NCBI RefSeq assembly: GCF_054482595.1
Contig: NZ_CM137008.1
Length of the DNA stretch: 64,000 nt
Direction: 5' to 3' (one strand)
Shown: in pieces, positions 618 through 48,819 of the stretch
How positions within the stretch are numbered: position 1 is the first letter of the stretch
How the letters are laid out: each line of letters starts with the position of its first letter
Notes under the pieces: generated by a model
The model's input: the letters and a program-made list of their open reading frames with translations, nothing else
What the model was told of the DNA's origin: nothing
The model's database searches: none
Made by a program: the position numbers and the translations under genes

Positions 618-1877
618 ATGCAACCTATCAAAATGGAGATTTTTATGACTAAAAAACCATGGGAAAGAAGACTTAAAGATTTATCGCACTTGCTCAAATG
701 CTGCATTGATACATATTTTGACCCTGAATTATTCCGCTTGAATTTGAATCAATTCCTCCAAACTGCAAGAACAGTAACATTTATTATTCAAAAAAACAAA
801 AACCAGATTATAGGATATGACATTTGGTATAACAATAATGTTATTGAAAAATGGAAAAATGATCCATTAATGGCTTGGGCTAAAAATTCTCGCAATACGA
901 TAGAAAAACAAGGCGATTTAGAAATGTATAGCGAGGCAAAGGCTACTCTTATTTCATCTTACATTGAAGAAAATGACATTGAGTTTATTACAAATGAAAG
1001 TATGTTAAACATTGGTATAAAAAAGTTAGTCAGACTTGCACAAAAGAAATTACCTTCATATTTAACTGAATCATCTATTATTAAATCAGAAAGACGATGG
1101 GTCGCTAATACGCTAAAAGATTACGAATTATTGCATGCCTTAGCTATAATCTATGGCAGAATGTATAACTGCTGTAACTCTCTTGGCATACAAATAAACA
1201 ATCCAATGGGTGACGATGTGATTTCGCCAACATCATTCGACTCTTTATTTGATGAAGCCAGGAGAATAACTTATTTAAAATTAAAAGATTACTCCATAAG
1301 CAAATTGTCATTTAGCATGATACAATATGATAATAAAATAATTCCTGAAGATATTAAAGAGCGTCTAAAACTGGTAGATAAGCCTAAAAATATCACTTCG
1401 ACAGAAGAGTTAGTTGACTATACAGCCAAGCTTGCAGAAACGACTTTTTTAAAGGACGGTTATCACATTCAAACATTAATTTTTTATGATAAACAATTCC
1501 ATCCAATTGATTTAATCAATACAACATTTGAAGATCAAGCAGATAAATATATTTTTTGGCGTTATGCAGCTGACAGAGCCAAAATAATAAATGCCTATGG
1601 CTTCATTTGGATATCAGAGCTATGGCTCAGAAAAGCAAGCATCAACTCCAATAAACCAATACATACAATGCCAATTATAGATGAAAGACTTCAGGTAATT
1701 GGAATTGATTCAAATAATAATCAAAAATGTATTTCATGGAAAATAGTTAGAGAAAACAAAGAAAAAAAACCGACTTTAGAAATATCAACAGCAGACTCAA
1801 AACATGACGGAAAACCATATTTCATGCGTTCAGTCTTAAAAGCAATTGGCGGTGATGTAAACACTATGAACAATTGA
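618..1877 (+). CDS. Hypothetical protein, 419 aa, AT-rich b-region cargo (moron); no recognisable domain
   Basis: Long uninterrupted ORF with ATG start; markedly AT-rich codon usage unlike neighbouring tail genes; convergent with tfa. Confidence 0.7.
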   Translation: MQPIKMEIFMTKKPWERRLKDLSHLLKCCIDTYFDPELFRLNLNQFLQTARTVTFIIQKNKNQIIGYDIWYNNNVIEKWKNDPLMAWAKNSRNTIEKQGDLEMYSEAKATLISSYIEENDIEFITNESMLNIGIKKLVRLAQKKLPSYLTESSIIKSERRWVANTLKDYELLHALAIIYGRMYNCCNSLGIQINNPMGDDVISPTSFDSLFDEARRITYLKLKDYSISKLSFSMIQYDNKIIPEDIKERLKLVDKPKNITSTEELVDYTAKLAETTFLKDGYHIQTLIFYDKQFHPIDLINTTFEDQADKYIFWRYAADRAKIINAYGFIWISELWLRKASINSNKPIHTMPIIDERLQVIGIDSNNNQKCISWKIVRENKEKKPTLEISTADSKHDGKPYFMRSVLKAIGGDVNTMNN

Positions 1878-2590: not shown

Positions 2591-5500
2591 TATGCAAGCC
2601 TCACAATATAGTTAAATGCGATGTTTTTGACGGTGTTTTCCGCGTTACCAGCAGCGTTAACGGTGATGGTGTGTCCGTGTGAGCCAATCGCAACGGAGTG
2701 CGTATGAGCACCAATACCGACAGTATGCGCGTGTGCACCTGCACTTGCAGCAGTACCTGACACCGGGTGGGTATGCGCTCCGGCTGACGATGTGCCAGTA
2801 CTCGAGCCTGCACGAGACGCACCTTTGAGGGCTTTATCGCCCTGCTCGGTATTGCCAGATGGGTAACAGGCAACCGTGTGTGTATGTGCCCCTGCAGAAG
2901 CAGCCGTACCACTGACACTATGGGTGTGCGCTCCGGTGTTATTCGTGGATTTAGTGCCGTAATCAAACGACGATGTGGTTTTCGTCCCCAAATCCGTACT
3001 GGATGCACTGGCACTGTGGGTATGCGATTTAATGCCGTCCTGTTCCTGAGATAATACGGCACGACCACTGGCGGGCTTGCCCTTAATCGTCCAGCCACGC
3101 ATATCAGGGATCACGCCTGACGGATAAGCGGCTGCAAGTTTCGGGTAGGCAGATTTGTCAAAAGTCTGCCCCTGCATCAGGGCATAGCCAGACGGAACGG
3201 TATCTGATGGCCACGGGATTGGTGCACCGACTGGATAAAACTCTGCAGGAGGATGAGCCGAGGTGTAAAGCTGCGCCCACGGCGACCAGTTTGCGTCGGT
3301 CGTATCCCGTCGTGAACGAATAAATGCCGGAGCATGAGCACCGCTTGTACCACCCCAGCCGATGAGTAACTCACCTTCGCCAACGGCTGTCATCCCTTTC
3401 AGGTGAATGATATTTCCATACGCTGTTGGATATCCGTTGTTATACACCTCGTATAACTCAAGACCTGTTGCCCCCTGCGTATTGTCTGTCAGCGCGGTTA
3501 CCCGACCTTTTGAAGCCAGATTAACTGATGATACTGCTGTTCCACCTGACGGTAACGCCCCGATCTCTGATGCCGTTGGCTTATTTCTGGAGTTATAGTC
3601 CCTTCGCCAGCCAGGTGAATAATATGTTCCGTGATTAATATAGGTAAACTGGGCGTTAGTTGTTCCACCACCAGTGGAGGTGGTCGGTGTGGTAATGCGG
3701 ATCGTCATCGCTGACTTTATCCCCATTACTTCAATGACAGCTCCGGCGAGATGAATATTACCGCAGTCAGTATCAGTAATGATTTTATTATTGCCATAAG
3801 ACCAGGAACCCTTGCACATCCAGTATGGATGGTTAAATGCTCCCTGAGAATCCAGCCACTCGATAAACTGTGCAGTCGTCCAGTTTCCTGTTGTTGTGCT
3901 TACTGACCCACCGAAGGCACGGCAGGCACCAATATTTTTCGTAAAGGTATCTTTGCCAGGGATATCCGCACCGTTCTGATCTTTCTGCAGACGTTTCTCA
4001 GCATTGTCATTGGCTGCTTTTACTGCCTTTGGCGTTGCCGCCAGCGTTTCAGACGTGCTGTTGGTCGCGCTGCTTAACTGGATTATCCCTTTCTGTGCTG
4101 TCGTTGCATCCTGTGCGGTGTATTTCCCGTTAGCCAGGTCATACGCGGCCTTAACGGCTTTTGGCGTTGCCGCCTGTGACTCGGAAGTGCTGTTGGTCGC
4201 ACTGCTGAGCTGTACTATCCCCTTTTTCGTCGTGCTCGCATCCTCAAGCGCCACGGCGGATGCAATATCCTCTGCACGTTTTGCCGCTGTCTCAGCGCGC
4301 GTTGCTGCAGATTCCGCCGTACTTTTGCTCTGAGCTGCTGCCGTCGCACTACCAGCTGCCTCTGTCGCCTTCGTGGATGCCGTCGTGGCGCTACCCTTCG
4401 CTGCTGACGCCTGTCTGGTCGCCTCATCTTTTGAAGCAGACGCCGATGATGCCGATGACGCTGCCGAACTGGCTGACGATGCGGCAGCCGTTTTTGAGGA
4501 TTCTGCACGGGTTTCCGACGCTTTCGCGTTCGTTTCGGATGTCTTCGCTGCGGAAGCTGACCTCGCTGCTGCGCTGGCCTGTACAGCGGCTTCGCCAGCA
4601 TTCGTTGTGGCTGTTGAAGCAGACGATGCAGCACTTTCTGCCGACTTTCCGGCAGCGGTGGCACTGGCTGAGGCCTGCCCGGCACTTGTTGACGCGGCAC
4701 TGGCAGATGATGCAGCCGCTGTTTTTGAGCCTGCCGCAGCTGAGGCACTCTGTCCCGCTGCCGTTTCAGAAGACCTGGCGTTCGTCTCGGACGTCTTTGC
4801 CGCCTTCGCGGAATTTCCTGCCGCCGTTGCCGAGGAAGCGGCACTACTGGCGCTTGATGATGCGTTCGTTTCTGATGATTTCGCTGCCTCTTTTGAGGCC
4901 GCCGCATCCCGGGCTGAGGTGGCAGCTTCTGACGCCTTTGTGGTCGCGGCGGATGCAGAAGTGGCTGCAGATTTTTGTGACGCTGCCGCATTCGTTTCTG
5001 ACGTTTTCGCCGCACCGGCACTGGTAGCTGCCGCGCTTTTTGAGGACTCTGCAGCAGCAGCACTTTTCGATGCTTCACTGGCCTTTGTTGATGCCGTTCC
5101 TGCGCTGGAAGTCGCTGACTGAGCCGACGAAGCGGCCTGTCCGGCTGACGTGCTGGCTGCACGTGCTGAATCTGCAGCATCAGTCGCATGGGTTGCCGCC
5201 TCACGGGCAGATGTGCTGGCATCACTGGCTGACTTCTTCGCGGCTGCCGTGTTCTGTGCCACCACGGACGCGTTACGCGCCACCTCTTCCACCATCAGTT
5301 CAAAACGTCGCAATGCCTCCGGACGGGCATCATCCTCCGTCATCGCACCGAGAAAATCATTCAGCGTACCGGGTTGGGAATCTTCATACACGGTGATGGT
5401 CCCGGCATGTGACGGCGGGAATCCTTCCACCAACAGAATAACGCTGTACTGACCGTACTCAACGTCCATGCTGTAACGCCCGGCTTCATCCGGATTTTCT

Positions 5501-35122: not shown

Positions 35123-35830
35123 ATGGTTCAGAATGAAAAAGTGCGCAAAGAATTCGCCCAGCGGCTAGCGCAAGCCTGTAAAGAAGCTGGTCTTGATGAA
35201 CATGGTAGGGGTATGGCCATAGCCCGTGCCCTTTCTCTTTCGTCCAAAGGCGTTAGCAAATGGTTTAATGCTGAGTCTTTACCGCGTCAGGAAAAAATGA
35301 ATGCGCTTGCGAAATTTCTAAACGTTGATGTTGTTTGGCTTCAGCACGGCACTTCGTTAAATGGAGCGAATGATGAAGATACTCTTTCATTTGTTGGCAA
35401 ATTAAAAAAAGGGTTAGTGCGCGTGGTTGGTGAGGCAATTCTTGGTGTTGATGGTGCCATCGAGATGACCGAAGAGCGCGATGGGTGGCTCAAGATTTAT
35501 AGTGATGATCCAGATGCCTTTGGTCTTCGTGTGAAAGGAGACAGCATGTGGCCCAGAATAAAATCAGGAGAATATGTACTCATTGAGCCTAACACCAAAG
35601 TATTCCCGGGGGATGAGGTGTTTGTCAGAACCGTTGAAGGACACAACATGATCAAGATTCTTGGCTATGACAGAGATGGAGAATACCAATTTACAAGCAT
35701 CAACCAGGACCACAGGCCAATAACGTTACCTTATCATCAAGTAGCAAAGGTGGAGTATGTGGCTGGTATTCTGAAGCAATCTCGTCATCTGGATGACATC
35801 GAGGCAAGGGAGTGGCTGAAAAGTTTGTGA
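35123..35830 (+). CDS. cI: CI-type prophage repressor (HTH plus LexA/S24 peptidase-like C-terminal domain), non-lambda immunity
   Basis: 235-aa ORF; N-terminal HTH and C-terminal LexA/S24-like autocleavage domain (GDSM motif); differs from remembered lambda cI. Confidence 0.85.
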   Translation: MVQNEKVRKEFAQRLAQACKEAGLDEHGRGMAIARALSLSSKGVSKWFNAESLPRQEKMNALAKFLNVDVVWLQHGTSLNGANDEDTLSFVGKLKKGLVRVVGEAILGVDGAIEMTEERDGWLKIYSDDPDAFGLRVKGDSMWPRIKSGEYVLIEPNTKVFPGDEVFVRTVEGHNMIKILGYDRDGEYQFTSINQDHRPITLPYHQVAKVEYVAGILKQSRHLDDIEAREWLKSL

Positions 35831-35938
35831 CTTCAAGTACGCGACAAGCCCCGTCCTTCAGGGCGTGGAGGATGTCAAAATAACTTTAAATAACACACCA
35901 CCAACATTTAACACATTGAATTAAAAAACCTACAATAT

Positions 35939-36274
35939 TTGATGAGAGGCGTTATGGAACCGGTCAAAATTAAACCATCTGTGGATTATATTGAAACCTA
36001 TGCGGACTTCGCTAGTTTTGCTCCACTACCGGGAGCGGAAAAAAATCTCATTTGTATACATTTTATCGCAAACAAGTCAATACCTGCGGTACTATCCCAA
36101 AATGATATACCAGATCAACCAGGTAGAGCGAATATGCAGATAGGCTCTGTAAATGAACTCAATCAGCAATGCACTGTGATAATGCCAATGGCACAACTAA
36201 AGGCTCTTCAGGAGAATATAGTTCTTCTTTTCGAACAATTAGAGGCACAAAACTCTAATGGAGCGAAGTCGTAA
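35939..36274 (+). CDS. Hypothetical protein A of the cI-downstream operon (likely start at MEPVKIK, 35954; about 106 aa)
   Basis: ORF preceded by gagagg SD-like sequence; stop overlaps next start (TAATG); no recognisable domain. Confidence 0.65.
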   Translation: MMRGVMEPVKIKPSVDYIETYADFASFAPLPGAEKNLICIHFIANKSIPAVLSQNDIPDQPGRANMQIGSVNELNQQCTVIMPMAQLKALQENIVLLFEQLEAQNSNGAKS

Positions 36275-36957
36275 TGCAACAACCGGAAGAAGTAGGTGAT
36301 TTAACTATTACTTACAAAACATCAAGTATTGTTAAACCACTGCAAGTTTCCCTGAATAACGTTAATACTCGCGATTTCATGATGTTCATGGAAACAGCAA
36401 AAGGTAATCTGTTTTCTACGCCTATTTCCTCTTATTCACCAAAAAACATGGTGGATGATGCGACCAATTCCCAGCTAACTGCTACAATCGTAGATAAAGG
36501 AGGGGTTGCCGATTGTAAAGGACAATCTAATGTTATCCCACCGTACGAGGAAACTCCTATACAGGGAACCGCAATGTCCGATTTGAGCAGAAACGAAATA
36601 CAGGCACTTCTGAAGGCAAATAAAGCTGAAGTGGATGCAGTGGCCTCAAAAATGCAGGCTGATATGGCCAAATGGCGTGAACTAATGGCTTCAGATATAA
36701 AGGAGATGAAGCATTTAGTTGTTACTCAGCACGAACAAATCAACAGTCGTCTGGACATACAATCGAGTAGAATTGAGAGTGCCCTTGACTCCCAATCAAA
36801 AAAGATCGATGCAGCTCTTTCTGTTCAAGAGGCAAAGTTAGAAGGTAAGCTTAGTGATGTTAAGCTTGATATAATCAAATGGGCCCTTGGCTTGCCAGCA
36901 TTAGCATTTGCTGTATATAAAATCTACGGATTGCTCTCTGGAGTCTCAACCCCCTAA
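36274..36957 (+). CDS. Hypothetical protein B of the cI-downstream operon: coiled-coil protein with C-terminal transmembrane anchor (227 aa)
   Basis: ORF translationally coupled to the upstream gene; heptad-like stretch in residues ~110-200; hydrophobic tail IIKWALGLPALAFAVYKIYGLLSGV. Confidence 0.7.
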   Translation: MQQPEEVGDLTITYKTSSIVKPLQVSLNNVNTRDFMMFMETAKGNLFSTPISSYSPKNMVDDATNSQLTATIVDKGGVADCKGQSNVIPPYEETPIQGTAMSDLSRNEIQALLKANKAEVDAVASKMQADMAKWRELMASDIKEMKHLVVTQHEQINSRLDIQSSRIESALDSQSKKIDAALSVQEAKLEGKLSDVKLDIIKWALGLPALAFAVYKIYGLLSGVSTP

Positions 36958-36963
36958 TACACA

Positions 36964-36989
36964 CCCGGCCTCAGTGCCGGGTTTTCTTT
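36964..36989 (+). terminator. Rho-independent terminator after the cI-downstream operon (tIMM-like)
   Basis: cccggc ctcagt gccggg followed by ttttcttt. Confidence 0.7.
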
Positions 36990-37198
36990 GCCCAACGTTC
37001 GCCCACCTAAAAACACATAATCGATTGTATTTATTGAAAAACTGATAGATACAACTTGCTAAACAGTGCAACCCTGATCCCTGCCCCATCACCTTCATCC
37101 TCAACATTTACAAAAATAAAATACCTTATATATCAAAACCATATCTCGAGAAAACGAATGAACAACAAAATTTCGTACTTATGGTTCTTGATTGTATC

Positions 37199-37227
37199 GA
37201 ACCAATAGTTCATTATTATCACCATCA
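37199..37227 (+). promoter_or_regulatory. Candidate pL (-35 TTGATT, 17-nt spacer, -10 CATTAT) with overlapping oL-like sites
   Basis: Read in sequence; tcgtacttatggttc motif shared with oR region. Confidence 0.4.
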
Positions 37228-37263
37228 GCAGGACGCTGGAAGCCAAACGGAACAGACTGGCAG

Positions 37264-37308
37264 GCTCTTTAAACAACGTCGAACTCTCGACTACGTGGCT
37301 GAAAAGCC
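37264..37308 (+). promoter_or_regulatory. nutL (boxA GCTCTTT ... boxB hairpin GGCUGAAAAGCC)
   Basis: gctctttaaacaacg...ctacgtggctgaaaagcc aligns with nutR candidate. Confidence 0.6.
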
Positions 37309-37407
37309 AGATCACCCAACCACATAAGCTGTGGGATGCAATGCCGAAGCAACCGTCTCAGGAGGAGCTTCGAGATTGCATCGCCAAAGTTTATTCGGGA
37401 GGAATCT

Positions 37408-37680
37408 ATGTCCAGAAAAACAAAATTTAAAGGCACCGCAGCTTCTCGCCGTAGAGCCCGTCGCGCAAATCTGCAAAGTCAGGAGGCGATCAGCTCCGAC
37501 AAGCTACACAGACCAACCCCTTCACGAGTGGTCTTGCAATGCAAGCGCAAACCAGCAATGAGAGCAGAAGTTATAACTCTGACAACGTTGACCAGAAAAT
37601 ATGAAGGTTCAACTTGTCTTCCGAACGTAGCTCTTTACGCGGCAGGCTACCGGAAATCAAAACAACTGACGGCGAGATGA
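37408..37680 (+). CDS. N: N-type transcription antiterminator with N-terminal arginine-rich motif
   Basis: Strong SD gggagg before ATG; MSRKTKFKGTAASRRRARRANLQ arginine-rich motif; position downstream of pL/nutL. Confidence 0.75.
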   Translation: MSRKTKFKGTAASRRRARRANLQSQEAISSDKLHRPTPSRVVLQCKRKPAMRAEVITLTTLTRKYEGSTCLPNVALYAAGYRKSKQLTAR

Positions 37681-37696
37681 TAAATTAATTTGCTAA

Positions 37697-38278
37697 TTAC
37701 TTGTTTTTGCCATGCTTATCCTGAGCGATAAGTTCATCCATAAGACTGTCTTTCTTCCCAGCAAACCTAATGTAGCACTCATTTCTATAGCGTTCCGGGA
37801 TAACAAAACGGTCGATTTCAGGATATCCAGTAGCAGAAGGTACCCGAATAAGAAGCCCTTTTTCGAGCAATGAGATTGCTTCAGGGCTTCCCTTTTCTGT
37901 CTTTAGCTGGTTATTAGCGGCTACAGCGAATGCCAAATACGCTCTTTCTCCAAGAGTTAACGAATCAAACAAATCTTGCACGTATTTCTCTTCTTTAGAT
38001 TTGCGCTTCTGAGCAGCGAATATCTCAATTCTTTCAGTCACAGCGTGATAAGCGGAATTAACAACGCCGTTAAGCACATAGCTAACGCAAAACAACAGGA
38101 TGTAATACATCCAGTAATGAGGAAGGATTTCTGGATTATGCAGGTTTATCCATTCTTTTACGCTTACAGGCATAACAATAATCAATATGATCAGGATGAT
38201 TAGCATATGAATCAACTGTTTAAGTGTCATTCCTTGCAGGAAAAAATGCATTAGTTCCTGCCACCATGAGTTGTTCAT
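37697..38278 (-). CDS. sieB: Superinfection exclusion protein B-like inner membrane protein
   Basis: 193-aa ORF with N-terminal hydrophobic helices, convergent with N; lambda sieB position/orientation from memory. Confidence 0.5.
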   Translation of the reverse strand: MNNSWWQELMHFFLQGMTLKQLIHMLIILIILIIVMPVSVKEWINLHNPEILPHYWMYYILLFCVSYVLNGVVNSAYHAVTERIEIFAAQKRKSKEEKYVQDLFDSLTLGERAYLAFAVAANNQLKTEKGSPEAISLLEKGLLIRVPSATGYPEIDRFVIPERYRNECYIRFAGKKDSLMDELIAQDKHGKNK

Positions 38279-38492
38279 CGGCGTTTCTCTTTTGCTCTCT
38301 GTAGGGGTGAATAGAGTTTATCCGATTTCTCGCTGTAGGGGTACACGAGAACCACCGAGCCTGATGTGGTTAAAAGACAGGCATACTAATAAACACTGCA
38401 CTGTGTATTCATTCCAACGAGTGAATACACTGAGCAATGTCGCTCGTAACTAAACAGGAGCCGACTTGTTCTGATTATTGGAAATCTTCTTT

Positions 38493-42050: not shown

Positions 42051-42454
42051 GCGAAATTAACTCTCAGGCACTGCGTGAAGCGGCAGAGAAAGCCGGTGAA
42101 GATAAGTGGCAGGCTAAAAAAATAAATGGTGATTTTTTCGTTATTCGTCACGGTAGTTATACAAGACAGCATGGCTACACATCGTATCAACCCATTGCGG
42201 AGATTGATTGTAAGCCAGTCCGGGATTTTGTTGCCAAGGCTAATCCGGCTACCGTGCTGGAATTACTGGATGAACTGGAAGCAGCAAAAAAGCGCATTGC
42301 AGAACTGGAAGCGCGGGAAATACTGCTCCCGGAACGTAGCAGCATGCTTCATCGAACAGATTTTCACGATGATTACCAAACGGTAATGGCATACAAAGTT
42401 TCTGAAGTCATCGATGCAATCCGCGCTACTGGCATTCGCATCAAAGGAGAGTGA
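42047..42454 (+). CDS. Hypothetical early-left protein (possibly Ea22-like)
   Basis: 135-aa ORF, coiled-coil segment; no firm motif. Confidence 0.5.
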   Translation: MSEINSQALREAAEKAGEDKWQAKKINGDFFVIRHGSYTRQHGYTSYQPIAEIDCKPVRDFVAKANPATVLELLDELEAAKKRIAELEAREILLPERSSMLHRTDFHDDYQTVMAYKVSEVIDAIRATGIRIKGE

Positions 42455-43211
42455 GATGATTCACTACCACGGTGGGCCTATTACTCCTGATACGTGCGCA
42501 ATGAGGGCATGGAAAGGGCGACATGCGTTTATCAGTTTTGCGCATTCAGGCCAGATCAATCTCGCGGCTGAATACTGTCAGTCGTTCGCGCTGGACAACG
42601 GTGCATTCACCGCCTGGAAAGCAGCTGGCAAAAACAAAATCGACTGGAGCGATTACTACGAGTTTGTTGCTCGCTGGAAGAATCACCCAGGATTCGATTT
42701 TGCCATTATCCCGGATATTATTGATGGCGGAGAGGAGGAAAATGATGCGCTTCTGAATGAGTGGCCTCACGGAAAACTAGCTGGCGTTCCAGTGTGGCAC
42801 ATGAATGAAAGTGACGCGCGATTTATTCATTTGTGCAATGAGTTTCCGCGAGTGGCTATCGGTAGTTGTGGCGACTATGACGTAAAGCGCCCAACTCTTG
42901 CGGTAGCCAGAATGAAAGACCTGATTCGTCACATTGTTGATGGGCATGGTCAGCCGGTTACGAAACTACATGGATTGCGCATGTTAAATCCGCTGATATT
43001 CACAAAATTACCCTTAGCCAGCGCAGATAGTACGAACGTCGCTCGAAACATCGGTATTGATAAAGCCTGGTCTAGGGCTTATGCACCTGCAAGTAAAGAG
43101 ACACGCGCAGCATTAATGGTAGAACGGATTGAGGCACACAATAGCCCTGGTTCTCTTGCGTATTGTGAACAACGCGACCGCTTTGAAATGCAATTGCAAC
43201 TAGCAGTTTAA
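42414..43211 (+). CDS. Hypothetical protein (likely start MIHYHGG at 42456; about 251 aa)
   Basis: Long ORF with typical codon usage; no motif I can assign with confidence. Confidence 0.6.
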   Translation: MQSALLAFASKESEMIHYHGGPITPDTCAMRAWKGRHAFISFAHSGQINLAAEYCQSFALDNGAFTAWKAAGKNKIDWSDYYEFVARWKNHPGFDFAIIPDIIDGGEEENDALLNEWPHGKLAGVPVWHMNESDARFIHLCNEFPRVAIGSCGDYDVKRPTLAVARMKDLIRHIVDGHGQPVTKLHGLRMLNPLIFTKLPLASADSTNVARNIGIDKAWSRAYAPASKETRAALMVERIEAHNSPGSLAYCEQRDRFEMQLQLAV

Positions 43212-43221
43212 GGACTAACAA

Positions 43222-44019
43222 ATGACCACTATTACCAAAGAACGTATTGAATTGTTCATTAAAAATCCGCTTGAAAACGGACTTACTCGTGGCGAACAAA
43301 TGGAACTGGCACGAATTGCACTGGCATCACTGGAACGCGAACTGATTCGCCACGAGCATGCCAAATGGTCTGACTCCACATTTGGCTGCGTTGGCCCCAT
43401 TGGTCCACTGAAACACCTCTCAAAAGAGGCTCTGGAAGCCGCAGCCGAACCAGACGATCTCAGCGAGTGGGCTGATATGCATTTCCTGTTGTGGGATGCA
43501 CAGCGCCGTGCTGGCATCAGCGATGCTGAAATTACCGCTGCTATGGAAGATAAATTGAAGATCAACATGGAGCGCCAGTGGCCTGAACCAATAGATGGTG
43601 AGCCTCGCTTGCACATTAAAGAACCCGGCAACTCTCCGGTAATTCCGGATGGTTTATCCACGGTATGCGCTGAGGCTTATCAGGTTGTAGGAGTTATGGC
43701 AGATGCGCTTGGTGTATTCGGTGATGCAGCAGTACAGAAAGTTCTGGATAACCTGTCACAGCAAAAACTTGTTCACAGAGATGTGCTGCCGTTCTCGCTT
43801 CCGGTGACTCCGGATGGTTGGATAAGCTGTAGTGAGCGAATGCCGAAAGAAACGGGTGACATTATTGTTGTTTCGGATGGCATTGTAATGTCCGGGATTT
43901 CTTATTCTCGTCGTGACGGGTTCTATATAGCCGCATTGGAGTACGACGACGATGAGCCAATTGGCGGTGTAACCCACTGGATGCCTCTACCAGAACCGCC
44001 TCGATTAAAGGAGCTATAA
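43222..44019 (+). CDS. Phage protein with C-terminal DUF551-like domain (N-terminal part possibly DUF550-like)
   Basis: 265-aa ORF; C-terminal W..C.ERMP ... VTHWMPLPEPP pattern typical of DUF551. Confidence 0.6.
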   Translation: MTTITKERIELFIKNPLENGLTRGEQMELARIALASLERELIRHEHAKWSDSTFGCVGPIGPLKHLSKEALEAAAEPDDLSEWADMHFLLWDAQRRAGISDAEITAAMEDKLKINMERQWPEPIDGEPRLHIKEPGNSPVIPDGLSTVCAEAYQVVGVMADALGVFGDAAVQKVLDNLSQQKLVHRDVLPFSLPVTPDGWISCSERMPKETGDIIVVSDGIVMSGISYSRRDGFYIAALEYDDDEPIGGVTHWMPLPEPPRLKEL

Positions 44020-44710: not shown

Positions 44711-44929
44711 ATGTACTTGACACTTCAGGAGTGGAACGCACGCCAGCGACGCCCAAGAAGCCTTGAAACAGTTCGTCGATGGGTACGCGAGTGCAGGATA
44801 TTCCCTCCTCCGGTTAAGGATGGAAGAGAGTATCTGTTCCACGAATCAGCGGTAAAGGTTGACTTAAATCGACCAGTAACAGGTAGCCTTTTGAAGAGGA
44901 TCAGAAATGGGAAGAAGGCGAAGTCATGA
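44711..44929 (+). CDS. xis: Excisionase Xis
   Basis: 72-aa ORF MYLTLQEWNARQRRPRSLETVRRWVRECRIFPPPV matches lambda Xis; 23-nt overlap with int. Confidence 0.95.
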   Translation: MYLTLQEWNARQRRPRSLETVRRWVRECRIFPPPVKDGREYLFHESAVKVDLNRPVTGSLLKRIRNGKKAKS

Positions 44930-45980
44930 GCGCCGGGATTTACCCCCTAACCTTTATATAAGAAACAATGGATATTACTGCTACAGGGACCCAAGGACGG
45001 GTAAAGAGTTTGGATTAGGCCGAGACAGGAGGATAGCAATCACTGAAGCAATACAGGCCAATATTGAGTTACTCTCAGACAGCGGACGCAAATCACTGAT
45101 AGACAGAATTAAAGGCGGTGACGCAATCACTCTTCATGTGTGGCTTGACCGATATGAAACAATCCTCACCGAAAGGGGGATCAGGCCGAAAACTCTACTC
45201 GACTACGCCAGCAAAATCAGGGCAATCCGAAGAAAATTGCCGGACAAACCGCTCACTGACATATCAACGAAAGAAGTGGCAGCAATGCTAAACACCTACG
45301 TAGCAGAAGGTAAAGCAGCTTCCGCAAAATTAATCAGGTCAACCCTTGTTGACGTTTTTCGTGAAGCAATAGCCGAGGGGCATGTGGCAACGAATCCGGT
45401 AACAGCAACCCGTACAGCAAAGTCAGAAGTAAGGCGCTCAAGGCTGACAGCTAATGAGTATGTCGAGATTTACCATGCAGCCGAACCTCTCCCTATCTGG
45501 CTAAGGCTGGCGATGGATTTGGCCGTCGTTACAGGGCAGAGAGTCGGCGATTTGTGCAGAATGAAATGGTCAGACATAAACGACAACCATCTTCACATTA
45601 AACAGAGTAAAACAGGGGCTAAACTCGCCATTCCGCTAACGCTAACGATTGACGCGCTCAATATCTCATTGGCTGATACACTACAGAAATGCAGGGAGGC
45701 CAGCAGCAGTGAAACTATAATCGCATCAAAGCATCACGATCCGCTTTCCCCGAAAACAGTATCAAAGTATTTTACAAAGGCGAGAAATGCATCTGGCCTC
45801 TCATTTGATGGAAACCCGCCAACATTCCATGAACTGCGTAGCCTGTCAGCGAGGCTATACCGGAACCAGATTGGCGATAAGTTTGCTCAACGTCTTCTCG
45901 GGCATAAATCAGATTCAATGGCGGCGCGGTATAGGGACAGCCGTGGACGGGAATGGGACAAAATTGAAATCGACAAATGA
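44907..45980 (+). CDS. int: Tyrosine integrase Int (lambda-type; N-terminal arm-binding domain lambda-identical, core-binding region divergent)
   Basis: 357-aa ORF; N-terminal ~55 aa identical to remembered lambda Int, divergence after residue ~56, conserved catalytic C-terminus (HELRSL ... LLGH ... Y). Confidence 0.95.
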   Translation: MGRRRSHERRDLPPNLYIRNNGYYCYRDPRTGKEFGLGRDRRIAITEAIQANIELLSDSGRKSLIDRIKGGDAITLHVWLDRYETILTERGIRPKTLLDYASKIRAIRRKLPDKPLTDISTKEVAAMLNTYVAEGKAASAKLIRSTLVDVFREAIAEGHVATNPVTATRTAKSEVRRSRLTANEYVEIYHAAEPLPIWLRLAMDLAVVTGQRVGDLCRMKWSDINDNHLHIKQSKTGAKLAIPLTLTIDALNISLADTLQKCREASSSETIIASKHHDPLSPKTVSKYFTKARNASGLSFDGNPPTFHELRSLSARLYRNQIGDKFAQRLLGHKSDSMAARYRDSRGREWDKIEIDK

Positions 45981-46074: not shown

Positions 46075-48819
46075 GTGAATTTAACCCTGACCCGAAGACT
46101 CTGGATGGGCTTTGCCCTGATGGCACTGTTAACCCTGACCAGTACCCTGGTGGGATGGTACAACCTGCGCTTTATCAGCCAGGTGGAAAAAGACAATACT
46201 CAGGCATTGATTCCTACCATGAATATGGCGCGCCAGTTGAGCGAAGCCAGCGCCTGGGAACTTTTCGCCGCGCAGAACCTGACCAGTGCCGATAACGAAA
46301 AGATGTGGCAGGCGCAGGGGCGAATGCTCACCGCACAAAGCCTGAAGATTAATGCGTTGCTGCAAGCGTTACGGGAACAAGGTTTTGATACCACCGCTAT
46401 TGAACAACAGGAGCAGGAGATCTCCCGTTCGTTACGTCAGCAAGGGGAACTGGTGGGGCAGCGTTTGCAACTGCGCCAGCAACAACAGCGACTCAGTCAG
46501 CAGATAGTCGCTGCCGCCGATGAGATCGCACGCCTGGCGCAAGGTCAGGCGAATAATGCGACAACTTCCGCTGGAGCGACCCAGGCCGGGATTTACGATT
46601 TGATCGAACAAGATCAGCGTCAGGCTGCTGAAAGTGCACTCGACCGGCTGATTGATATCGATCTTGAGTATGTTAACCAGATGAATGAACTGCGCCTTAG
46701 CGCCCTGCGGGTGCAGCAAATGGTGATGAATCTGGGGCTGGAACAGATCCAGAAAAATGCGCCAACGCTGGAAAGGCAGCTCAATAATGCGGTGAAAATT
46801 CTGCAACGTCGGCAAATACGCATTGAAGATCCGGGAGTTCGTGCGCAGGTCGCAACAACGTTAACTACCGTTAGCCAATATAGCGATCTGTTGGCGCTGT
46901 TCCAGCAGGACAGTGAAATCAGCAATCACCTGCAAACTCTCGCCCAAAATAATATCGCCCAGTTCGCGCAGTTTAGTAGCGAAGTCAGTCAGCTGGTCGA
47001 CACCATTGAGCTGCGCAATCAGCATGGACTGGCGCATCTGGAAAAAGCCAGTGCACGCGGGCAATACAGCCTGTTATTGCTGGGGATGGTTTCACTTTGC
47101 GCACTGATTCTGATCCTCTGGCGCGTGGTTTATCGCTCAGTCACGCGTCCACTTGCCGAACAAACGCAGGCGCTGCAACGGCTGCTGGACGGTGATATTG
47201 ACTCCCCTTTTCCGGAAACCGCTGGCGTACGGGAGCTGGATACCATCGGGCGGCTGATGGATGCGTTTCGCAGCAGTGTTCATGCACTGAATCGCCACCG
47301 CGAACAGCTGGCGGCGCAGGTCAAAGCACGTACAGCTGAATTGCAGGAACTGGTGATAGAACACCGACAGGCACGGGCGGAAGCAGAAAAAGCCAGCCAG
47401 GCAAAATCGGCGTTTCTGGCGGCGATGAGCCATGAGATCCGCACACCGCTGTACGGTATTCTCGGCACCGCACAGCTACTGGCAGATAACCCCACACTTA
47501 ACGCCCAGCGTGATGATTTGCGGGCAATTACTGACTCTGGTGAATCGTTGCTGACCATCCTCAACGATATTCTCGATTATTCGGCTATCGAAGCAGGTGG
47601 CAAGAATGTTTCGGTCAGCGATGAGCCCTTTGAACCGCGCCCGCTGCTGGAAAGTACCCTGCAATTAATGAGCGGACGGGTGAAAGGTCGCCCGATTCGC
47701 CTGGCAACGGCAATTGCCGATGATGTACCGAGCGCGTTAATGGGCGATCCGCGGCGTATTCGTCAGGTCATTACCAACCTGTTGAGCAACGCCCTGCGTT
47801 TTACTGACGAAGGGCAGATCGTTTTACGTAGCCGTACTGATGGTGAGCAATGGCTGGTCGAAGTGGAAGACAGCGGCTGCGGTATTGATCCCGCGAAACT
47901 GGCAGAAATCTTCCAGCCATTTATTCAGGTAAGTGGCAAACGCGGCGGCACCGGGCTGGGGCTGACTATCAGTAGCCGTCTGGCCCAGGCGATGGGCGGC
48001 GAACTGAGCGCCACCAGCACGCTGGAGGTTGGAAGCTGTTTTTGTTTACGCTTGCCGTTACGTGTTGCCACAGCACCCGCGCCAAAAACAGCCAATCAGG
48101 CGGTGCGTCTGGACGGTTTACGTTTGCTGTTAATTGAAGATAACCCGCTAACCCAGCGAATTACCGTTGAGATGCTGAACACCAGTGGTGCGCAGGTTGT
48201 TGCTATTGGCAATGCCGCGCAGGCTTTAGAGACACTGCAAAATAGCGAACCGTTTGCTGCCGCACTGGTGGATTTTGATCTGCCGGATATCGACGGCATT
48301 ACCCTTGCCCGGCAACTGGCACAGCAATATCCGTCGCTGGTTTTGATTGGCTTTAGCGCTCATGTCATTGACGAAACGCTGCGCCAGCGTACCAGTTCAC
48401 TATTTCGCGGGATTATCCCTAAACCGGTGCCGCGTGAAGTGCTCGGTCAGTTACTGGCGCACTATCTCCACCTGCAAGTCAATAACGATCTACCACTTGA
48501 TGTATCGCAACTCAATGAAGATGCTCAATTAATGGGGACGGAGAAGATCCACGAATGGCTGGCATTATTTAAACAACATGCCCTGCCGCTTCTCGATGAA
48601 ATCGACATTGCCCGCGCCAGCCAGGACAGCGAGAAAATAAAGCGTGCCGCGCATCAGCTAAAAAGCAGTTGCTCGAGTCTGGGAATGCGTAGCGCCAGTC
48701 AGCTATGCGCACAACTGGAGCAGCAGCCATTATCTGCCCCCCTTCCACACGAAGAAATTACACGCAGTGTTGCCGCTCTGGAAGCATGGTTGAATAAGAA
48801 AGACCTGAACGCGATTTGA
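46075..48819 (+). CDS. torS: TMAO sensor histidine kinase TorS
   Basis: 914-aa [24 protein letters not shown]; HisKA/HATPase/receiver/HPt architecture. Confidence 0.95.

Follow-up and report, generated by a model that had tools for sequence, protein, structure and literature searches.

In phage lambda, the position directly 3′ of the cI repressor gene holds two genes, rexA and rexB, whose products exclude T4 rII and other phages with loss of membrane potential; RexA is a 279-aa protein and RexB is a protein with four transmembrane (TM) segments. The cI-to-N region is a hotspot of mosaic diversity in which both rexAB and bstA have been named; the latter, a defence gene of prophage BTP1, is conserved in many Gram-negative bacteria at sites downstream of prophage repressors (PMC8585504). 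In 933W, the Stk cassette (DUF3024 protein, RuvC-like protein and Ser/Thr-Tyr kinase) is expressed in lysogens, with the kinase co-transcribed with cI, and aborts HK97 infection; in 434, Hex lowers induction and blocks RecA-stimulated repressor cleavage (PMC3564112). As a kind, accessory exclusion cargo beside a repressor gene is already known. Here, we analyzed a 64,000-nt stretch of contig NZ_CM137008.1 (assembly GCF_054482595.1; hereafter the window, to which all coordinates without a locus name refer) and describe a two-gene cassette that occupies the cI-to-terminator slot of a lambda-like E. coli prophage. The two proteins, which we call ORF1 and ORF2, their modular partner exchange and a putative dual-start arrangement are new with respect to the literature that we searched.

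The ORF1/ORF2 pair resembles rexAB in its placement, on the cI strand in the slot 3′ of cI and before a terminator and OL/pL, and in its layout of two genes, a soluble protein first and a membrane protein second, with expression from the repressor promoter expected. The proteins themselves are different: they have no sequence similarity to RexA or RexB and matched no Rex model in PADLOC-DB v2, the soluble protein is 106 aa long, and in place of a four-TM, channel-like architecture the membrane protein combines a single anchor at its C-terminus with an extended coiled coil in the cytoplasm. The Stk cassette is allelic to the pair, lying beside a 96–98% identical cro-cI segment with the same breakpoints, but differs in its proteins and its chemistry, which is that of a kinase, and neither ORF1 nor ORF2 has a kinase match. 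The BstA system has a single protein, which is cytoplasmic, contains KilA-N and lacks a membrane anchor, together with a DNA anti-BstA element; neither ORF1 nor ORF2 matched KilA-N or BstA in Pfam and PADLOC, and ORF2 gave no match to SieB (PF14163).

We found that the cassette is a discrete insert of 1127 bp (35836..36962). In pairwise blastn comparisons with O157:H7 TW14359 (L019; L-numbers denote compared loci) and eco-241 (L020), homology stops at 35835, five bases past the stop codon of the cI-type (933W-immunity) S24 repressor gene (35123..35830, plus strand; phrog_4, E 1.6e-48) that forms the left border of the slot, and restarts at 36963/36964, the first base of a terminator stem; matches of the right flank to the phage collection likewise begin at 36962–36964. 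At ≥99% identity, the cassette is present in 41 of 5426 complete E. coli genomes, while the adjacent cro-cI segment is present in 426 of them (96–98% identity), O157:H7 strains included, so that 385 of the 426 genomes with the same cro-cI lack the cassette. A discrete insert between conserved backbone genes (breakpoints 35835/36963) that is absent from close relatives is what is expected of a mobile accessory gene cassette, or moron; as to a promoter and terminator of its own, the window has a promoter-like match, and its terminator belongs to the backbone. The immunity region with the cassette was found at three integration sites, torS (the window), near sbcB (L001) and argU (L009). Other cargo follows the same cI elsewhere. 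O157:H7 TW14359 has the Stk cassette, with a DUF3024 protein that matches PADLOC PDC-S43 (E 5e-42), a RuvC-like protein and a Ser/Thr kinase that matches mad6/PD-T4-6 (E 7e-50 to 1e-37), and eco-241 has a third allelic cargo (L020 4644..5543), a single 299-aa protein of phrog_4506, function unknown, which had no PADLOC match. These data support the view that the slot is a cargo hotspot and that its other occupants are exclusion systems. The same cI with this cassette, with the Stk cassette or with the 299-aa gene makes a natural allelic series that would allow a clean isogenic comparison. At the left border of the slot, a degenerate operator half-site (ACTTCAAGTACGC, compared with ACTTTTAGTACGC in OR) lies at 35830..35842, exactly at the cI stop and the left junction of the cassette. 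Just 3′ of the stop codons of three different repressor genes (L007 ~1346–1368, L013 ~4675–4697 and L012 ~4336–4358), we also observed the motif (G)TGGCCTGACGA(G/C)AC, which may be a conserved junction or processing element at this border.

ORF1 (35954..36274, plus strand; 106 aa) starts at an ATG at 35954, the start also called by RefSeq for WP_000433877.1, behind the Shine-Dalgarno (SD) sequence GAGAGG at 35944..35949 (plus strand; anti-SD duplex energy –5.8 kcal/mol). ORF2 (36274..36957, plus strand; 227 aa, WP_001187007.1) encodes a tail-anchored coiled-coil membrane protein, and its start overlaps the ORF1 stop in TAATG at 36272..36276 (plus strand), which indicates that the two genes are translationally coupled. 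The pair lies on the cI strand between cI and OL/pL, outside both lytic operons (pL and pR). We found no terminator-like sites between cI and ORF1 (35830 to 35954), so read-through from the repressor promoter is expected, and we infer that the cassette is expressed in lysogens. Behind ORF2 lies a tImm-like intrinsic terminator (36963..36989, plus strand) that forms the right slot border, with a stem at 36963..36982 followed by TTTTCTTT to 36989 and a folding energy of –13.4 kcal/mol (z –2.5). This terminator and 120–240 bp beyond it are lambdoid backbone and match 235 phage records from query position 8–10 onward, including lambda (82.5% identity), 933W (where it is annotated 'terminator') and HK542. 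An initial annotation of the window, made from the sequence alone, had described two overlapping, coupled ORFs of about 106 and 227 aa in the lambda rexAB position, unrelated to RexA and RexB; all of this agrees with what we found, including the position between cI and the tImm-like terminator with OL/pL beyond, and a PADLOC scan matched no defence model. The hairpin and T-run with which the annotation ended the operon are present but are not specific to the operon, as they open the backbone segment common to lambda, 933W and HK542. The annotation had also proposed an internal promoter, and the best match in the region, TTAACA-17-TACAAT at 35908..35936 (plus strand; 10 of 12 consensus matches), lies about 10 nt from the place it had given; however, promoter-like sites in the region are not enriched over shuffles (4 found, 5.8 ± 2.4 expected), and we rejected an internal promoter as a conserved feature because the site is not kept in homologous loci. 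A scan of 34700..38400 against Rfam gave nothing relevant, and the RNA of the cI–ORF1 spacer has no unusual structure (z –0.9).

To describe how the pair is distributed, we read the loci of its relatives. Clustered at 90%, the relatives of ORF2 number 34 and come from Escherichia, Klebsiella, Yersinia, Serratia and Providencia, and the pair is kept down to 26–30% identity across genera. Almost all of the loci read share one arrangement, in which a small gene is closely coupled to the membrane gene (by overlapping it in TAATG or TGATG, or with 2–18 nt between them), a repressor gene on the same strand immediately precedes the pair and an intrinsic terminator follows it; L015 is an exception in position and L039 in having no partner gene. 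The repressors upstream vary in specificity (S24 types of 212–251 aa and one 138-aa helix-turn-helix (HTH) type), and a repressor gene lies upstream in 20 of the 29 IMG/VR loci, with other pairs following anti-repressor genes. The same diverged cassette (98% identical) is found between tail genes in L015 (3862..5182) and beside a repressor gene in L016 (3862..5182), in each case with a terminator-like hairpin upstream, 98% identical 5′ sequence and a GC hairpin with T-run downstream; it also holds a perfect palindrome, TTACTGATCAAAAAATCAGTAA, that is operator-like in look. When we compared the window pair with a 65%-identical relative, the proportions of nonsynonymous and synonymous differences (pN/pS) were 0.23/0.87 for ORF1 and 0.06/0.86 for residues 101–227 of ORF2. 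With pN far below pS, ORF1 and ORF2 are real genes under purifying selection, and Enterobacterales prophages have conserved the pair as a unit. Two Klebsiella copies (L010 4476..5492 and L011 902..1912) carry frameshifts in ORF1 and/or ORF2, a recent pseudogenisation. Searches of GenBank phage DNA, tblastn included, with ORF1, ORF2 and the whole cassette gave nothing beyond a 31-bp exact match, and phages HK244 and HK542 were reached in this collection by a diverged query only. The 31-bp stretch lies at 35849..35879, in the 5′ untranslated region of the cassette. In 44 Stx-phage records, the identical sequence (100%) falls within a hypothetical gene, named L0135 in 933W, close to the far end of the record. 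The stretch, which may be the scar of a recombination event, overlaps a small hairpin (CGTCC-ttca-GGGCG).

In ORF2, constraint is unevenly distributed along the protein. Residues 1–50 (36274..36423, plus strand, as are all segments of ORF2) form an N-terminal extension with the semi-conserved pattern GxhTISY..P..DFM at about residues 8–45 and a pN of 0.30–0.46. Residues 51–100 (36424..36573) are an unconstrained, disordered linker with a pN of 0.53–0.68, close to pS, and a predicted local distance difference test (pLDDT) score below 50. The linker is followed by an invariant helix at residues 101–136 (36574..36681; MSDLSRNEIQALLKANKAEVDAVASKMQADMAKWRE), with invariant columns in the family alignment and a pN of 0.06, by a coiled-coil stalk at residues 137–199 (36682..36870), assigned from heptad scoring and a continuous AlphaFold helix, and by a C-terminal membrane anchor at residues 200–221 (36871..36936; DIIKWALGLPALAFAVYKIYGL) with a 6-residue tail. 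AlphaFold predicts residues 106–221 as one continuous helix, and the most hydrophobic 19-residue windows lie at 196–222, with a borderline Kyte-Doolittle (KD) value of about 1.5. The coiled coil and single C-terminal anchor that had been noted from the sequence are thus both present. Diverged relatives have clear TM segments (KD 2.0–2.7) followed by 30–55-residue Pro/Gln-rich tails, which fits an orientation with the N-terminus inside and the C-terminus outside; membrane topology and oligomeric state are given here as predictions.

ORF2 matches phrog_14825 (E 8e-129) and also belongs to phrog_5820. Its match to the Pfam family CCDC90-like/DUF1640 (PF07798) is weak (independent E-value 3e-6, 27.7 bits), covers model positions 63–167 of 175 only and is flagged weak or faint in precomputed tables; this partial match accounts for the name 'CCDC90 family protein' that RefSeq gives it in some genomes. 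The relative L017 matches Baculo_PEP_C and not PF07798, diverged family members give no PF07798 match, and a search of solved structures with the family profile returned no CCDC90B or MCUR1 chain. Because a diverged relative matches another coiled-coil family and no solved CCDC90B or MCUR1 chain was found, membership in the CCDC90 family is not established. CCDC90B and MCUR1 are like ORF2 in having a coiled-coil stalk that ends in one C-terminal TM segment, and the invariant L-K-A-N-K-A-E of ORF2 resembles, by sequence alone, the beta-layer motif [aliphatic]-A-T-K-x-[DE] with which the DUF1640 stalk starts (PMC4786415). Their head domain, however, is unrelated, as model positions 1–62 of PF07798 are unmatched by ORF2. 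ORF1 is an acidic, soluble protein with a predicted beta-beta-beta-alpha fold. It has 16 relatives, and no more than 21 were returned when 1.84 billion representative proteins were searched exhaustively with a profile. We found no relative of ORF1 in Pfam, PHROG, NCBIfam or the Protein Data Bank (PDB), and it was also assessed for structural similarity to a COMM-domain-like fold; PDB sequence searches with the ORF1 and ORF2 family profiles gave no matches, and an hhalign comparison of ORF1 with the N-terminus of ORF2 detected no homology. ORF1 is a structural orphan and is probably oligomeric. The initial annotation, which had recognized no motif in ORF1, was right in this, whereas its view that the pair could not be assigned to any described family holds for ORF1 in the databases searched but is too broad for ORF2, given the weak PF07798 match and the two PHROGs.

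Across the family, the ORF2 core (invariant helix, coiled coil and TM segment) is constant and is paired with at least three unrelated families of upstream partner. Type I partners are ORF1-like (87–106 aa). Type II partners (142–165 aa, beta-rich, phrog_5893) are found in Serratia L012, IMG/VR L032 and phage HK542. Type III partners (118–131 aa) have four cysteines in two CxxC-like pairs, a pattern suggestive of a zinc ribbon, and are found in L035 (2990..3346) and in L040 and L041 (3026..3421). The N-terminal extension of ORF2 changes with the partner type, and L039 encodes the core alone. This co-variation of extension and partner suggests that the partner docks on the N-terminal extension, so that ORF1 would bind ORF2 there. 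In HK542, a type II pair lies directly after a cI annotated as lambda-repressor-like and is followed by the same terminator and by a promoter annotated as lambda pL-like; in lambda, this position is taken by rexAB. A match was also obtained in the partial record HK244, inside a feature that its annotation calls 'immunity region'. The 144-aa and 206-aa proteins of the HK542 pair (both annotated F864_gp35, with homologues HK24405 and HK24404 in the HK542 annotation) are also uncharacterised. The core of invariant helix, coiled coil and TM segment recurs in the 206-aa protein, which has 30% identity to ORF2 over the core and 46% to L017, and the layout is that of the window, with a small upstream gene that overlaps the membrane gene, 3′ of cI and before the same terminator. 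In contrast to the window, the 144-aa partner is unrelated to ORF1 (type II, phrog_5893) and the N-terminal extension is different.

ORF2 also has a candidate internal start. In the window, the SD-like AGGGAA at 36563..36568 precedes an in-frame ATG (M101) at 36574..36576 (together 36563..36576, plus strand), from which a 127-aa core product could be made. In family members, a Met, encoded by GTG in L012 and HK542, immediately precedes the invariant helix and has an SD such as AGGAGG at about –12 to –7, although the peptide encoded at this SD cannot be aligned between subfamilies. When we computed anti-SD energies along the genes, the homologous site was the strongest codon position of the gene in 10 of 21 loci and within the top 5% in 12 of 21 (combined p about 3e-15, for loci that are not fully independent). 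Three more diverged loci have an SD-preceded start at the homologous position and a fourth has one weakly, and the L039 gene starts exactly at the homologous Met, with AGGAGGAG upstream. The energy at the M101 site is –5.1 kcal/mol, on a par with –5.8 for the annotated start of ORF1, –5.6 for that of ORF2 and –5.1 for that of cro; M101 is the best of nine internal ATGs, the other eight being at –2.5 or weaker, and the GG at –10 and –9 is kept in five close relatives. The prediction of two ORF2 products, of 227 aa and of the 127-aa core, has good support in the family and moderate support in the window. The lambda holin and antiholin S105 and S107 are dual-start phage membrane proteins whose N-termini differ by 2 residues. 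ORF2 would be like them in being apparently one gene with two in-frame starts and products that differ at the N-terminus, an arrangement that could set a threshold; it is unlike them in that the products start 100 residues apart, the anchor is C-terminal and the gene lies in an immunity region instead of a lysis cassette. In lambda, rexB is also expressed alone and excess RexB suppresses exclusion (PMC8585504), to which a core-only ORF2 product would be a parallel.

Taken together, context and architecture suggest an anti-phage function, to which we give close to an even chance, and as a full explanation we tentatively favor, at somewhat less than even chances, a lysogen-expressed, Rex-like two-part module for exclusion or abortive infection. 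The cassette would be a moron in the cI-to-terminator slot of a 933W-immunity lambdoid prophage, expressed in the lysogen. ORF2 would be held in the inner membrane by its C-terminal helix, with its cytoplasmic bulk formed by the invariant helix and long coiled-coil stalk, which come after the flexible linker and short extension, and ORF1 would be a small soluble beta3-alpha protein docked on that extension. The variable head, made up of ORF1 and the ORF2 N-terminus, may sense a component of a superinfecting phage, and the constant membrane-anchored core may then exclude that phage, most likely through a disturbance of the inner membrane that aborts the infection. We favor membrane perturbation with an abortive outcome over a block of entry because nearly all of the conserved mass is cytoplasmic and the window protein has virtually no periplasmic part. 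A core-only product from M101 may set the ratio of sensor-bearing to sensor-free subunits and with it a firing threshold or self-immunity. A more far-reaching version is, in our judgment, possible but doubtful: a modular superfamily in which a tail-anchored stalk effector, made in two forms, is combined with interchangeable sensors of at least three unrelated folds on matching extensions, functionally replaces RexAB, in HK542 among others, and uses its short isoform as an antagonist for threshold or self-immunity.

Several observations weigh against such an exclusion module. An AlphaFold model of an ORF1–linker–ORF2 fusion, made with a paired alignment, had no confident interface (mean pLDDT 58.7). 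A PADLOC-DB v2 scan of ORF1 and ORF2, with a release that dates from 2023, returned no defence model and HEC-07 as the sole match, at E 0.009 and in the coiled coil. A single-pass anchor is a poor pore candidate, and the TM segment of the window protein is only moderately hydrophobic (KD 1.49) and includes a lysine. The internal SD of the window is weak, its –5.1 kcal/mol placing it only in the top 9.5% of the gene. The frameshifted Klebsiella copies indicate that the cassette is dispensable, and 434 Hex shows that the slot can house an activity other than defence (PMC3564112). As to earlier work, the literature that we searched, which did not include Brenes and Laub 2025 or Degnan 2007, does not mention WP_001187007 and does not tie DUF1640/CCDC90 to prophage defence, and WP_001187007 is absent from the DefensePredictor supplements.

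One rival is a non-abortive superinfection exclusion, in which ORF2, acting on the cytoplasmic side of the inner membrane, would block either an ejection protein or the entry of the genome, so that the cell would survive, as with P22 SieA, HK97 gp15 and lactococcal Sie2009. It can draw on the same positional and cassette evidence and on the membrane anchor of ORF2, and the Pro/Gln-rich periplasmic tails of 30–55 residues in diverged relatives could reach the entry machinery. However, the window protein has only about 6 residues past its anchor, its conserved mass is cytoplasmic and up to the length of a long stalk from the membrane, and a simple plug needs neither a soluble partner nor an interchangeable, sensor-like head, so we consider this improbable. 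Morons often encode host-fitness factors, and a tail-anchored inner-membrane coiled-coil protein with a weak CCDC90/DUF1640-type match could instead be a lysogenic-conversion factor that alters envelope or stress properties of the host and has no phage target. The fast-diversifying head, interchangeable partners and patchy, cassette-like spread are typical of conflict systems and not of housekeeping modulators, and the allelic cargo of the slot is defence-related, which makes conversion distinctly improbable. A modulator of lysogeny or induction, with the pair tuning repressor stability or the lysis–lysogeny decision in a Hex-like manner and possibly tethering a host factor at the membrane, would account for the expected co-transcription with cI and for the strict association with repressor genes of many specificities, and has a precedent in the same slot in 434 Hex (PMC3564112). 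The prospects of this reading are nevertheless poor, since the same cassette also occurs in a tail-gene slot and beside anti-repressor genes, with its upstream terminator-like hairpin and conserved 5′ sequence, is independent of the repressor type (S24 of 212–251 aa or 138-aa HTH) and is missing from 385 of the 426 genomes with the same cI.

Two further rivals carry little weight. A small upstream gene that is translationally coupled to a membrane protein could be the neutraliser of a membrane toxin, in a toxin-antitoxin-like addiction pair that stabilises the prophage, and a core-only gene does exist in L039. That gene, however, is intact though apparently without a partner, the frameshifted Klebsiella copies lose the reading frame of ORF2 and not that of ORF1, and we found no similarity to known toxin-antitoxin families; an addiction pair is thus very unlikely. 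The annotation of both ORFs goes no further than 'hypothetical' or a weak domain name, as might be expected of chance or decaying frames without function, but the pN/pS values (0.23/0.87 for ORF1 and 0.06/0.86 for the ORF2 core) and conservation to 26–30% identity across genera contradict this and make it barely credible.

If the cassette is a true exclusion system, it would add a new protein family to the few lysogen-expressed defences of the classic lambdoid immunity region, and its swappable sensor-effector design could show how specificity is exchanged. In that case the dual start may also explain how a prophage membrane effector is kept silent, which for RexAB is still open after decades. 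HK542, which carries a relative in the rexAB position, is available for genetics. Should the pair not act in defence, it would still be a widespread, strongly conserved lysogen cargo of unknown role.

The window prophage is integrated next to torS (46075..48819; integrase at 44907..45980), and the window's plus strand runs in what is the leftward direction of lambda. A cro-like gene (34816..35043, minus strand) faces the cI-type repressor gene. Beyond the cassette begins the pL/N arm, with an OL-type operator copy, TTTCGTACTTATGGTTC, at 37171..37187 (plus strand) whose repeats are common to OR at 35057..35074 and 35115..35129, and with an N-like antiterminator gene at 37408..37680 (phrog_271). 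Upstream of the N start, a 16-nt inverted repeat at 37335..37382 (88% complementary, 16-nt loop) lies where a nutL/boxB-type element is expected. An intact sieB (superinfection exclusion B) adjoins N at 37697..38278 (minus strand) and is a gene separate from ORF2, so the immunity region has a second exclusion gene; in the L009 copy, sieB is broken by an IS3-family element. Between the recombination genes and the integrase lie two genes for 265-aa proteins (42414..43211 and 43222..44019), neither of which had a PADLOC match. The product of the first matches the queuine tRNA-ribosyltransferase-like phrog_887 (E 8e-102) and may therefore act in 7-deazaguanine DNA modification, and that of the second is a mosaic of PHROGs without known function. 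At the prophage end, beyond the tail-fibre assembly gene, a 419-aa ORF at 618..1877 (phrog_19262, function unknown) lies in a typical cargo position.

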